This document shows, piece by piece, positions 30,542-33,837 of a stretch of DNA of 61,208 nucleotides. The first letter of the stretch is position 1; every line of letters starts with the position of its first letter. Below the pieces are notes generated by a model. The model was not told the DNA's origin, did no database searches, and saw only the letters and a list, made by a program, of their open reading frames with translations. The stretch is from a virus (taxonomy: Duplodnaviria; Caudoviricetes): the IMG/VR virus record IMGVR_UViG_3300032227_000235, positions 1 through 61,208 of that record. One strand, written 5' to 3'. A program made the translations under genes and the position numbers.

Positions 30542-31597
30542 ATGTCTGACGCGACTGCAAAAGAATCCTTACCCGCTCTCGTCGATCGGGCAGGGCGTAG
30601 GCTTTTAGAGGCAAGATCAAGCGCAGAAGTGCTTGAAGCTAAAGCAATTGCTGAAGCAGCCTTGCATTATGCAAAAATAACAAAAGCAGCTAACGAAACT
30701 CACGCCGACTGCATCCGTATTATTTCGCGGGCTGAGATCCGGATGGCGAATGAGATTGATGCCGGCCAAGCGAATAAGCAGATCAAAGTTGCCGGTCATC
30801 CTAAGAATGTCCAAGATTCGGACAGCGCGGCGGTCTCATACGGAGATCTCGGTATATCAAGACAGCGTGTTCAAGAATGGCGTGAGGTCCGTGATGCCGG
30901 TGAAGAGATTGTCGATAGCGTGATCACTAAGGCTCTGTCTGAGGGCAGGGCGCCGACAAAGGGCGAGATTTTAAGAGCCGCTCAAGAGATCCGTAAAGAG
31001 AAAGCTGGCGATAAAGCTGTAAGGCGCGCTGAGAAAGAACAGCGTCTTGCTCAAAAGATCGTTTCGCTACCTGATCAAAAGTTTGGTGTGATCCTAGCTG
31101 ATCCGCCTTGGAAGTTTGAAGTTCGTTCTTCATTAGGCATGGATCGTTCTGCGGATAATCATTATCCGACACAGAATGTCGAGGATATTTGCGAATTAGA
31201 TATTCCATCTGTCGCGGCTGATGATTGCGTTTTATTTTTATGGGCGACCGTGCCGATGATGCCGGAAGCATTGGAAGTTATGTATGCGTGGGATTTTAAT
31301 TACAAAAGCCAGTGCGTTTGGGTGAAAGATAAAATTGGAACTGGTTACTGGTTCCGCAATCAACATGAGATCTTATTGATAGGCACGAAGGGCAATGTCC
31401 CGGCGCCGGCGATGGGAACACAGTGGTCTTCAGTAGTTGAGGCTCCTGTTGGTGTGCATTCCGCCAAGCCTGAAAAGTTCTACGAATTAATCGAGACATA
31501 TTACCCGAATCTTCCAAAGCTGGAGATGTATGCGCGGTCTCCGCGTGAAGGGTGGTCTGTAGCTGGCTATGAAGCTGATGGAGTTGATTATGAGTAA
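30542..31597 (+). CDS. MT-A70 family N6-adenine methyltransferase with N-terminal HTH-like region
   Basis: ILADPPW, HYPT, LFLWAT, GTGYWFRNQHE, HSAKP, LEMYAR. Confidence 0.92.
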   Translation: MSDATAKESLPALVDRAGRRLLEARSSAEVLEAKAIAEAALHYAKITKAANETHADCIRIISRAEIRMANEIDAGQANKQIKVAGHPKNVQDSDSAAVSYGDLGISRQRVQEWREVRDAGEEIVDSVITKALSEGRAPTKGEILRAAQEIRKEKAGDKAVRRAEKEQRLAQKIVSLPDQKFGVILADPPWKFEVRSSLGMDRSADNHYPTQNVEDICELDIPSVAADDCVLFLWATVPMMPEALEVMYAWDFNYKSQCVWVKDKIGTGYWFRNQHEILLIGTKGNVPAPAMGTQWSSVVEAPVGVHSAKPEKFYELIETYYPNLPKLEMYARSPREGWSVAGYEADGVDYE

Positions 31598-32215: not shown

Positions 32216-32776
32216 ATGTTAGCTACCGGTGGAGCGCGCCGCACCGCTCTTTACAAAATGTGTATGGTTCCTGTTTTAGCTGAGAGGCAAAGAGAGTTTT
32301 CAGAGCGCATTATGGCATTGCGCAAAAAAGAACCGGAGCCTGTTGAAGATTTTATATTCGGAGATCCGAAGGTCGAGGAATCCAAAAGGATGACGATCTC
32401 TCAATTGCGCGCAAAAATGATTTCGGATCGTCTTTTCTCTTACGATTTAAGATCTCCTCGATTTGCTATCATGCGCGCAAGCCGCAAGATGGTTGCCGCC
32501 TATTATGGTTTAGACGATGACGCGCTGATTAGTTTCATCAGAACACAGAGAAATGTCGTCGCCAGACAACTGTGTTTTTATTTAATCTACATGCACGAAG
32601 ACAAAAGCACACCTGATATTGGCCGGATATTTAATGGCCGCGATCATACGACTATCCTGCATGGGATTAAAAAGAGTGCCTTGCGGTTTTATAGTTGTGA
32701 GCATGAATTTCGTGCTGCCTATGATTACTGTCGCGGCAATCTTTACGAGCGTGATGAATATTATTGGGCCGCGTGA
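32216..32776 (+). CDS. DnaA domain IV-like HTH protein
   Basis: R....VVARQ...YL......STPDIGRIF.GRDHTTILHG. Confidence 0.85.
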   Translation: MLATGGARRTALYKMCMVPVLAERQREFSERIMALRKKEPEPVEDFIFGDPKVEESKRMTISQLRAKMISDRLFSYDLRSPRFAIMRASRKMVAAYYGLDDDALISFIRTQRNVVARQLCFYLIYMHEDKSTPDIGRIFNGRDHTTILHGIKKSALRFYSCEHEFRAAYDYCRGNLYERDEYYWAA

Positions 32777-33837
32777 TGGCGGTATATTACAATGAGATTG
32801 ATCCGGCGGCGGCGCATATTCTTCAAGCCCTGATTAAAAAGGGTGTGATTGCGGATGGTGTCGTCGATCGACGATCTATTTCGGAGGTTCAGCCAGATGA
32901 AATCCGTGAATTCAAGCAATGTCATTTCTTCGCCGGAGGAGGGTTGTGGTCCGTCGCTTTACGACTTGCCGGCTACGCAGACGATCGATCTATTTGGACA
33001 GGTAGTTGCCCTTGCCAACCCTTCTCAGTCGCGGGAAAGGGCGCCGGTAAAGACGATAAACGGCATTTATGGCCCGACTTCTTTCGACTCATCGAAGGCT
33101 GTAGGCCCGCTATCGTCATGGGTGAACAGGTTAGCGGATCGGCTGGCTATGATTGGTTCGATGGAGTCGCCTCTGATCTGGAACGAGGTGGTTACAAAGC
33201 AAGGGCGGTCGATATACCGGCTCTCGCCGTGGGCGCCGCGCATATCAGACAACGGCTCTATTGGATCGGCGTGGGCGACACCGTCAGCGCGCGATTGGAA
33301 AGACACTCCTGGAATGTCCCTGGACGGGATAAATCCGGACGGCTCGGAGAGATTAAGAGTGGATCAACTACCGCGCCAAGTAATTGCTGCGACATGGCCG
33401 ACGCCAATCCAATCGGATGCGATGGGATCGGGAACTCGCAATGCGCCGGGATCGAAAGCTCATGCGGGCGTGAGTTTATCAGACATGGTGAAGACGGGAT
33501 CGTCTACCGGCAGGGCAATTTGGCCAACACCGACAGTTCCGGGTGGCGGGAACACAGTGCCGGAAGGAACATCAATGACGGGCAAAATGCCGAATGGAAA
33601 AAAACGGCAAGTGACAACGAATTTAGTAGCGCATGGGATGACGCAGAATGGTTCACAGGATGCGACGGGAAAGCGCGGCGCGTTAAACCCGGAATTCGTC
33701 TTTTGGCTGATGGGATTCCCGGAAGAGTTCACTTACTGCGCCTTGGAGGCAATGCAATCGTTCCGCCTCTCGCGGCACAAGTCATCAAAGCAATGATGGA
33801 AAGTGAAGAGATTTTTTTTGTGGAGAGCGACTGCTAA
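32776..33837 (+). CDS. C5 cytosine methyltransferase, alpha chain
   Basis: FFAGGG (I), PCQPFS (IV), EQV (VI), HIRQRLYW (VIII), GNAIVP (X); no motif IX in this frame. Confidence 0.9.
   Translation: MAVYYNEIDPAAAHILQALIKKGVIADGVVDRRSISEVQPDEIREFKQCHFFAGGGLWSVALRLAGYADDRSIWTGSCPCQPFSVAGKGAGKDDKRHLWPDFFRLIEGCRPAIVMGEQVSGSAGYDWFDGVASDLERGGYKARAVDIPALAVGAAHIRQRLYWIGVGDTVSARLERHSWNVPGRDKSGRLGEIKSGSTTAPSNCCDMADANPIGCDGIGNSQCAGIESSCGREFIRHGEDGIVYRQGNLANTDSSGWREHSAGRNINDGQNAEWKKTASDNEFSSAWDDAEWFTGCDGKARRVKPGIRLLADGIPGRVHLLRLGGNAIVPPLAAQVIKAMMESEEIFFVESDC
32897..33796 (+). CDS. Overlapping +1-frame ORF, putative methyltransferase beta chain
   Basis: GGAGG at 32883 before ATG 32897; three W[AP]TP repeats; LNPEFVFWLMGFP resembles motif IX. 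Confidence 0.7.
   Translation: MKSVNSSNVISSPEEGCGPSLYDLPATQTIDLFGQVVALANPSQSRERAPVKTINGIYGPTSFDSSKAVGPLSSWVNRLADRLAMIGSMESPLIWNEVVTKQGRSIYRLSPWAPRISDNGSIGSAWATPSARDWKDTPGMSLDGINPDGSERLRVDQLPRQVIAATWPTPIQSDAMGSGTRNAPGSKAHAGVSLSDMVKTGSSTGRAIWPTPTVPGGGNTVPEGTSMTGKMPNGKKRQVTTNLVAHGMTQNGSQDATGKRGALNPEFVFWLMGFPEEFTYCALEAMQSFRLSRHKSSKQ

Follow-up and report, generated by a model that had tools for sequence, protein, structure and literature searches.

The subject of this analysis is a gene for a C5 cytosine methyltransferase core in a phage genome (IMG/VR record IMGVR_UViG_3300032227_000235; Duplodnaviria, Caudoviricetes), inside which a second long reading frame lies on the same strand. The whole stretch of DNA that was analyzed, which we call the window, is 61,208 bp long and is a complete phage record with direct terminal repeats. 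The outer gene, frame A, runs from 32776 to 33837 on the plus strand, as do all features named here, and encodes 353 residues followed by a stop codon at 33835-33837; we refer to its product as the alpha chain. The inner gene, frame B, lies wholly within it at 32897-33796, in the +1 frame relative to A, and encodes a putative beta chain of 299 residues plus a stop codon, in a frame that is open from 32849 onward over 315 codons. An earlier note on this DNA, made from the letters alone, had pointed out a +1 open reading frame (ORF) of about 300 codons with a GGAGG at 32883, an ATG at 32897, three W-x-T-P repeats, and the stretch LNPEFVFWLMGFP, and all of these were found where it had placed them.

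Frame A matches the Pfam family PF00145 with 60.6 bits (cutoff, 22), over residues 73-195 only; TIGR00675 with 46.5 bits, under the cutoff of 100.65; and phrog_363 over residues 1-346 (1.5e-70). Five catalytic motifs are all read in this frame and are invariant or nearly so in an alignment of 42 homologs of frame A (alignment A2): motif I (FFAGGG, 32926-32943, with F52 and G54 invariant), motif IV with the catalytic cysteine (PCQPFS, 33010-33027; P79, C80, and Q81 invariant), motif VI (GEQV, 33121-33132; G116 and E117 invariant), motif VIII (RQRLYWIG, 33247-33270; R158 invariant), and motif X (GNAIVPP, 33748-33768). Motifs IV to VIII align to M.HhaI in a HMMER search with an E value of 8.6e-18, motif IV pairing with PCQAFS and motif VIII with QKRERIYMI of that enzyme. 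Between motif VIII and the C-terminal part, from about residue 170 to residue 284, the same alignment has no conserved column and the length varies from near zero to about 200 residues. This region includes a spacer of residues 183-281 (33322-33618) that is predicted to be disordered, with a predicted local distance difference test (pLDDT) value of 30 to 45, and that occupies the same bases as the modules of B. Residues 285-331 (33628-33768) then form a conserved C-terminal block with the pattern W..A.W..G.DGKARR.KPG..LLADG.PGRV..LR..GNAIVP, in which R301, L310, G313, G325, N326, and I328 are invariant. Since this block is colinear with residues 269-307 of M.HhaI, its motif IX-X stretch (the third HMMER domain, nonsignificant at -3.5 bits), frame A, which lacks the canonical motif IX consensus, appears to read a degenerate shadow of that motif ahead of motif X. 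A target recognition domain (TRD) and a motif IX in the same chain between motifs VIII and X were thus not found in frame A, where the stretch is unconserved and disordered. The earlier note had described A as carrying motifs I, IV, VI, VIII, and X, lacking motif IX, and being unconserved between VIII and X; the motifs and the absence of a canonical IX hold, and the unconserved part shrinks to residues ~170 to 284.

Frame B is preceded by a GGAGG Shine-Dalgarno site (32883-32887), 9 nucleotides (nt) before its ATG at 32897. Its first 48 residues (32897-33040) are a lead-in that is predicted to be disordered (pLDDT below 50 for residues 4-48) and is overprinted on A motifs I to IV. Residues 71-111 (PLSSWVNRLADRLAMIGSMESPLIWNEVVTKQGRSIYRLSP; 33107-33229), overprinted on A motifs VI to VIII, form a conserved segment with predicted contacts to A, which we call the docking segment and in which W75, L79, R82, G87, S88, E90, L93, W95, R108, and L109 are invariant or nearly so. 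Three modules follow, led by WATP at residue 126 (33272-33283), which starts 1 nt past the end of A motif VIII, by WPTP at residue 167 (33395-33406), and by WPTP at residue 209 (33521-33532), where residues 205-215 are a further predicted interface. A canonical motif IX, LNPEFVFWLMGFP, closes the series at residues 263-275 (33683-33721), with P265, W270, and L271 invariant. The repeats and motif IX had been assigned to B before, and this division of parts stands; the docking segment over A motifs VI to VIII had been overlooked. In the bases of the conserved C-terminal block of A, runs such as GGGATTCCCGG read G-[IF]-P in both frames, and the motif IX consensus is better in B. Exactly 26 nt separate the end of B motif IX (..GFP) from the start of A motif X (GNA..) in 49 of 53 nonredundant loci of this family (33722-33747 in the window).

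A nested open frame far beyond chance

The nested open frame is real and far beyond chance. The window has 21 further ORFs with a length of 250 codons or more, in which the longest +1 open stretch covers 39 to 144 codons and at most 0.46 of the ORF length; in the methylase gene it covers 315 codons and 0.88 of the length. When either frame was searched with tblastn against 50,697 phage records, matches fell in the same places, in a single piece and with 95 to 99% coverage, for example, in N15 gene 58, SEN4/5, eiAU, the Xanthomonas PhiXhv phages, and Cy-LDV1. In the window and in each of the 20 loci found first (21 of 21 cases), A and B both remain open along almost the entire gene, and the third frame is open over 37 to 145 codons only. 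A further 160 loci, 80 from species genomes and 80 from IMG/VR, were gathered with the B alignment alone, and tblastn matches in both frames were obtained at 180 of 182 loci, with B always in the frame A+1; the two exceptions are short A fragments. Because the two-frame layout recurs at these 180 loci from independent sources, a sequencing error or a pseudogene can be ruled out. Homologs with both frames open come from phages of Proteobacteria, Firmicutes, Cyanobacteria, and Acidobacteria, and hosts among the species-genome loci include Alpha- and Gammaproteobacteria, Acidobacteriota, Planctomycetota, and Bacteroidota.

A count over a fixed interval, which is independent of how the ORFs were found, gave the same picture. 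Of 192 loci (the window and some contigs being present twice), 18 that were cut by contig ends or were too distant for the N-terminal anchor were left out, 174 were analyzed, and A reaches motif X in 167. The earlier note had named interruption of the +1 frame in close homologs as part of what would refute its proposal; from A codon 46 to 20 codons before the A stop, the +1 frame is free of stops in 145 of these 167 loci, a count that, like the other locus counts given here, overstates independence because the loci share descent. Over the same interval the +2 frame is free of stops in none of the 167 and contains 8.7 stops on average. The +1 frame also matches the B profile far across the phage world, with 138 bits in N15 gp58, 167 in a P2-like phage, 182 in a Klebsiella phage, 104 in a T4-like Krischvirus, 87 in an rV5-like phage, and 79 in Paenibacillus phage Jacopo, in which B is open over 236 codons and the +2 frame over at most 54.

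Synonymous-codon shuffling was applied to 53 nonredundant loci, which were selected from 115 complete ones so that their first 160 residues share less than 80% identity. The stops expected from it number 2.0 for B before motif VIII (mean chance of none, 0.14) and 3.4 for A from motif VIII to motif X (mean chance of none, 0.064); for the window gene, shuffles left B free of stops before motif VIII in 7.7% of cases and A free of stops between VIII and X in 1.0%. The zero stops found in these tests follow in part from how the regions were defined, and the weight of the argument therefore rests on the fixed-interval count and on the control within the genome.

B has its own conserved start signal. 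ATG codons in the B frame recur 15, 11, 5, or 1 codon before the site that lies over the conserved Asp42 of A, and an open B-frame ATG is present at that place in 47 of 49 nonredundant loci against 26.6 expected. An open ATG combined with a Shine-Dalgarno-like 4-mer 5 to 16 nt upstream is present in 41 of the 49, against 8.5 expected from A-synonymous shuffles; the tail probabilities of this test are too small, since they take the loci to be independent.

The two frames are constrained in different places. Upstream of motif VIII, nucleotide diversity tracks the codon phases of A, with values of 0.31, 0.26, and 0.51 for positions 1, 2, and 3, and heterozygosity at A third positions drops from ~0.55 to 0.38-0.42 over B residues ~71 to 111. 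From motif VIII to the C-terminal block, conservation lies in B and is absent from A. The docking segment of B shows a constraint of its own: in pairs of less than 45% identity, the identity of B exceeds its null by 0.047, compared with -0.002 in the control frame. In Jacopo, the +1 frame matches the B N-terminal profile with 44.1 bits, a value reached by 0 of 200 A-synonymous shuffles (mean, 8.7; maximum, 28.7).

These patterns bear on whether B is translated at all, since its openness and conservation might be a by-product of constraint on A or on the DNA. We consider such a by-product extremely unlikely: A is unconserved exactly over the modules, where B is conserved, the +2 frame is open in 0 of 167 loci, the combination of ATG and Shine-Dalgarno-like site is nearly five-fold above expectation, and even in the Paenibacillus phage Jacopo, B is open over 236 codons and the +2 frame over 54 at most. 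Some of the likeness does arise in this way, as the conservation of A by itself makes the +1 frame resemble B (null means of 8.7 to 14.5 bits against the B N-terminal profile) and the control frame shows an identity excess of 0.046 to 0.051 over shuffles.

The same data speak to a second alternative, in which the gene would yield one polypeptide by two programmed frameshifts, from A into +1 just after motif VIII to read the modules and motif IX, and then by -1 back into A before motif X. The order of parts invites this thought, as the gene is colinear with a single-chain enzyme (motifs I to VIII, then modules and IX, then X), in many loci the first W-x-T-P starts 1 nt past motif VIII, and the 26-nt distance from motif IX in frame B to motif X in frame A is exact in 49 of the 53 loci. 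With frameshifting, however, nothing would hold A open between motifs VIII and X or B open before motif VIII, and both are open in 145 of 167 loci; a conserved ATG and Shine-Dalgarno site for B, present in 41 of 49 loci, lies far upstream of the supposed shift site and would be left unexplained; and the B segment ahead of that site, which falls in a predicted interface, shows more conservation than a by-product would. A heptamer of the type X_XXY_YYZ was found at the second (IX-to-X) junction in 1 of 53 loci, the first junction being viewed by eye in 22 loci. On this evidence we regard a frameshifted single chain as very unlikely.

The putative beta chain and its single-chain relatives

B belongs to a large group of proteins. 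It matches phrog_1008 with 1e-29 over residues 13-309 of the 315-codon ORF, and a search of a large protein collection returned 2578 homologs at an E value of 1e-3 or less. Pfam and NCBIfam contain no family that matches it, and none of the 120 B homologs listed carries a Pfam domain. The layout of the chain is constant, consisting of a variable lead-in, the docking segment, W-x-[TS]-[PA] modules in varying number, and then the pattern G.TP.GSSA.T.KRGALNP.F..WLMGFP.EW. The lead-in is absent in some homologs, and B is open over only 197 to 242 codons in N15, HdK5, Delraymugoa, and Jacopo. The number of modules, which the earlier note had proposed to compare among homologs, ranges from 0 to 5 in the 53 nonredundant loci, with 3 in the window (0 in 4 loci, 1 in 9, 2 in 12, 3 in 22, 4 in 4, and 5 in 2), a number that is by itself no proof of separate specificities. 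As the earlier note had suggested, the repeats may be exchangeable target-recognition units that make the enzyme multispecific.

What B may be is indicated by a relative in which the two frames are one. The gp71 protein of mycobacteriophage WillSterrel is a single chain that contains, after the catalytic motifs and all in one frame, three LLPTP modules, LNPAFPEWMMGWPTGW, and GNGVVP. Like the pair of A and B, it combines the same catalytic core with x-P-T-P modules, a motif IX of the form LNP.F..W.MG.P, and a motif X of the form GN.VVP; unlike the window locus, it has the modules, motif IX, and motif X all in the catalytic frame. The motif IX of B is homologous to the in-frame LNPAFPEWMMGWP of WillSterrel gp71, and the C-terminal part of the B profile matches the WillSterrel catalytic frame with 37.6 bits. 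From this in-frame homology it would follow that the modules and motif IX of B correspond to the usual variable region and motif IX of this C5 methyltransferase branch and have been transferred to the +1 frame. C5 methyltransferases of Bacillus phages of the SPR and phi3T type are single chains that carry tandem recognition units between motifs VIII and IX, each mapped to one target. Like these, B in the window has several tandem units; the W-x-T-P modules are known here by their number alone.

A further observation concerns single-chain-looking genes of actinophages, in which the +1 frame right after motif VIII reads an extra module, LLPTPETG... in WillSterrel (gp71, positions 1009-2184 of locus L185) and LFPTPRSAD... 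in Gordonia phage Neville (gp75, positions 1000-1863 of locus L190). Such a +1 P-T-P motif arose in 94 of 2000 A-synonymous shuffles for WillSterrel and in 29 of 2000 for Neville, and inspection of Neville frame A by eye found no P-T-P module. The modules may therefore sit in different frames in different lineages, and since these genes read a +1 P-T-P after motif VIII, modules may have moved between frames over the history of the family.

The homology to WillSterrel also bears on the possibility that B is translated and has a function unrelated to methylation, such as another role in DNA binding or in antidefense. B has neither a Pfam or NCBIfam family nor a relative of known structure, as its profile had no match among PDB sequences at E values up to 10 and its model, compared with 48,161 PDB chains, gave a best Z score of 2.8, which is meaningless at a mean pLDDT of 58. 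Clusters found with B in the ESM Atlas, mostly viral, are all labeled "hypothetical protein." On plasmids, the search with B returned 17 records, most of them phage-like, and none showed an informative neighbor. Against an unrelated function, the TRD and motif IX that a single-chain C5 methyltransferase carries in frame have their homologs in the C-terminal half of B, all 160 of the 160 loci gathered with B alone match in both frames so that B was never found without A, and the complex model described below places B motif IX against A motif X. We hold an unrelated function to be highly improbable.

A probable two-chain methyltransferase

In the structure model of A alone, confidence is high for residues 1-178 and moderate for residues 285-345, with pLDDT values of 30 to 45 for residues 183-281 between them. 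The model has the large-domain fold of M.HhaI (2i9k_A; Z score of 15.2, root mean square deviation of 3.2, and 174 aligned residues with VIA-align), a fold that A shares with M.HhaI and other solved monomers, all of which have their small domain in frame. The lone B model has confident islands at residues 70-115, 226-240, and 265-294, with pLDDT values of 62 to 93 over residues 71-111.

Modeling of the two chains together, the check that the earlier note had suggested, gave a complex score of 0.90 (0.90, 0.91, and 0.88 in the separate runs) compared with 0.00 for the best of three controls. Of 80 solved complexes, 58 attained the mark used, as did 2 of 110 mismatched pairs, a calibration that holds only roughly here because our own alignments were used. 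The runs share at least 48% of their contacts, and the pLDDT of the partner is at least 53. In the complex model, B residues 71-111 contact A residues 141-159 and 335-346, B residues 272-274 in motif IX contact A residues 329-331 in motif X, and B residues 278-289 contact the N-terminal helix of A. The tail of B after motif IX (AMQSFR...) is the +1 reading of A motif X, GNAIVPP, and is modeled as a helix that touches the N-terminal helix of A.

Two-chain C5 methyltransferases have precedents. M.EcoHK31I of E. coli, which recognizes YGGCCR, is described as needing both an alpha and a beta polypeptide, the beta coding sequence lying entirely inside the alpha gene in a different frame (PMC2836561, PMC3404938), and the N terminus of its beta chain is said to matter for association (PMC2836561). 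Alpha is said to carry motifs I to VIII, motif X, and the TRD, and beta to carry only motif IX (PMC2836561, PMC3404938). Compared with this published description, the window locus is alike in that B lies inside A on the same strand in another frame and in that the large chain holds motifs I to VIII and X and the small chain motif IX. It is unlike M.EcoHK31I in that the putative recognition modules are on B and the A spacer is predicted to be disordered, and also in that the window beta covers some 85% of the length of alpha, its start lying ahead of motif I. If M.EcoHK31I is a sequence relative of this family, its published TRD assignment may need to be revisited. M.AquI, which recognizes CYCGRG, is a C5 methyltransferase split in the variable region, its small subunit consisting of the distal variable region and motifs IX and X (PMC3404938). 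The window enzyme would likewise be a C5 methyltransferase divided between two chains at the variable region. It would differ from M.AquI, for which the consulted part of the source describes no nesting (PMC3404938), in that the catalytic chain retains motif X and the gene for the other chain lies inside the catalytic gene, in a different frame.

Taking the sequence comparisons and the models together, we think it likely that the two nested frames encode two chains that form one C5 methyltransferase in the manner of M.EcoHK31I; that B is translated, that alpha and beta bind, and that both are needed are what we infer. This was the proposal of the earlier note, and it gains from the openness of both frames, the B start and Shine-Dalgarno site, the homology to WillSterrel, and the complex score of 0.90; the likeness to M.EcoHK31I has to be qualified in one respect, as the TRD would be in beta and not, as published for that enzyme, in alpha. 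The alpha chain would consist of a Rossmann-type catalytic core with motifs I, IV, VI, and VIII, a disordered spacer of about 100 residues, and a C-terminal block ending in the motif X helix. Beta would start at its own Shine-Dalgarno site and ATG about 120 nt inside the alpha gene and comprise a disordered lead-in, the docking segment, three W-x-T-P modules, and the canonical motif IX. It would dock on alpha through its N-terminal segment and motif IX, the latter packing against motif X and the N-terminal helix of alpha, and once docked would rebuild the small DNA-reading domain that single-chain enzymes hold between motifs VIII and X. The sole role of the alpha spacer would be to stay open so that translation reaches motif X.

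Several points weigh against this two-chain proposal, in addition to the shared descent of the loci and the region definitions already mentioned. The fixed +1 interval contains 1 to 4 stops in 22 of the 167 loci; in the four of these that were inspected (N15, Klebsiella ST13-OXA48phi12.5, Delraymugoa, and HdK5), B is merely shorter at one end and the profile match is 87 to 182 bits. In 7 of the 174 loci, A fails to reach the motif X pattern. B folded alone gives a poor model, with a mean pLDDT of 58. The high complex score speaks for binding, yet it may instead reflect the likeness of A and B together to the single-chain C5 methyltransferase fold, since the pair resembles a split single-chain enzyme and the score may thus respond to solved monomers. 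The conservation excess in the A spacer, 0.063 to 0.075, is small compared with 0.043 to 0.051 in the control frame, and for this reason we claim for the spacer only that it stays open. Finally, with a conserved block at the position of motif IX, A alone could retain more function than we assume.

This last point leads to a further alternative, in which both frames are translated and alpha alone is active, with beta as an accessory that alters or broadens target choice or regulates the enzyme. In A, the conserved block at the motif IX position is followed by motif X, and the published TRD of M.EcoHK31I is assigned to alpha (PMC2836561, PMC3404938). Such an alpha would have to read DNA with a chain in which no segment between motif VIII and the C-terminal block is conserved or ordered (pLDDT of 30 to 45, length from about 0 to about 200 residues), and it is B that holds the homologs of the TRD and motif IX found in a single-chain relative. 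An active alpha with an accessory beta seems to us improbable, if less so than the other alternatives, and we continue to prefer the formation of one enzyme from both chains.

Our results lead us to a broader and more speculative proposal, which we put forward tentatively and with more doubt than confidence. It covers N15 gp58, K1G ORF31, SEN4/5, the T4-like, rV5-like, and Paenibacillus phages, and thousands of metagenomic relatives, which might together represent an old and very large family of phage C5 methyltransferases built as a dual-coding gene of 200 to more than 300 codons. In such a gene the DNA-reading subunit would be encoded inside the catalytic gene, the alpha spacer would serve as a disposable linker, and modules could be gained, lost, and swapped in beta (0 to 5 of them) with no damage to alpha, allowing specificity to change fast while the two partners remain inseparable on transfer.

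Annotation, meaning, and neighboring genes

The annotation of this methylase family is inconsistent. The nested ORF is annotated in some GenBank records, as in K1G (ORF30, "Mte8-like"), PhiXhv-18, and Jacopo (gp57); in Tunturi_1 (gp50, locus L018) and Cy-LDV1 (g54, locus L013), only frame B was called, as "methyltransferase," and the catalytic frame A was missed. Most of the phage records listed have a single feature under the gene, and the plasmid entries have only "DNA cytosine methyltransferase" from the NCBI pipeline, which is frame A only. In a literature search of main texts, the nested arrangement was not described as a family trait beyond M.EcoHK31I. The label "Mte8-like protein" of phage K1G is named once without comment in the part of the source available (PMC5582158), and a gene table of a Paenibacillus phage has DNA-cytosine methyltransferase rows in which, in the portion at hand, the overlap is unremarked (PMC6070908). 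Relative to the literature searched, the breadth of the family, the location of recognition modules in the nested chain, and dual coding over about 300 codons are new, and the mechanism has one described precedent.

If both chains are made, few same-strand overlaps between phage genes would be as long or as widely conserved as this one, which is presently hidden. M.EcoHK31I, long treated as an oddity, would prove to be the first example to be known of a design common among phages, and it would be explained why the frame-A proteins of the family show no recognizable DNA-reading domain. The enzyme would also be a natural split methyltransferase with modular recognition units, useful for engineered targeted methylation, an aim that work on M.EcoHK31I has pursued (PMC2836561). 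The findings are relevant to phage annotation, to the prediction of methylation specificities that protect from restriction, and, as a test case, to the detection of overlapping genes.

Some minor observations concern the alpha chain and its surroundings. A motif II-like YYNEID (A residues 4-9) precedes the motif I-like FFAGGG (residues 51-56) at 32785-32943, residue 1 of the A model corresponds to M.HhaI residue 34 in the structure match, and HMMER weakly pairs A residues 37-65 with M.HhaI residues 3-31. Judging from these matches in sequence and model, the first strand-helix units of the fold may be permuted in this methylase family (II-III-I-IV). Immediately upstream lies an ORF of 186 residues (32216-32776), also on the plus strand, whose stop overlaps the A start at 32776 as TGATG, an overlap that suggests translational coupling of this ORF with frame A. 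In phage record MW202483, a gene labeled "dnaa protein helix-turn-helix" is located downstream of the methylase homolog. Two genes upstream of A in the window, an ORF of 351 residues (30542-31597, plus strand) contains ILADPPWKF, which we take to resemble the DPPW motif of N6-adenine methyltransferases; the phage may then carry both adenine and cytosine methylases. SEN5, eiAU, and one Klebsiella phage carry both kinds of methylase next to their own homologs.

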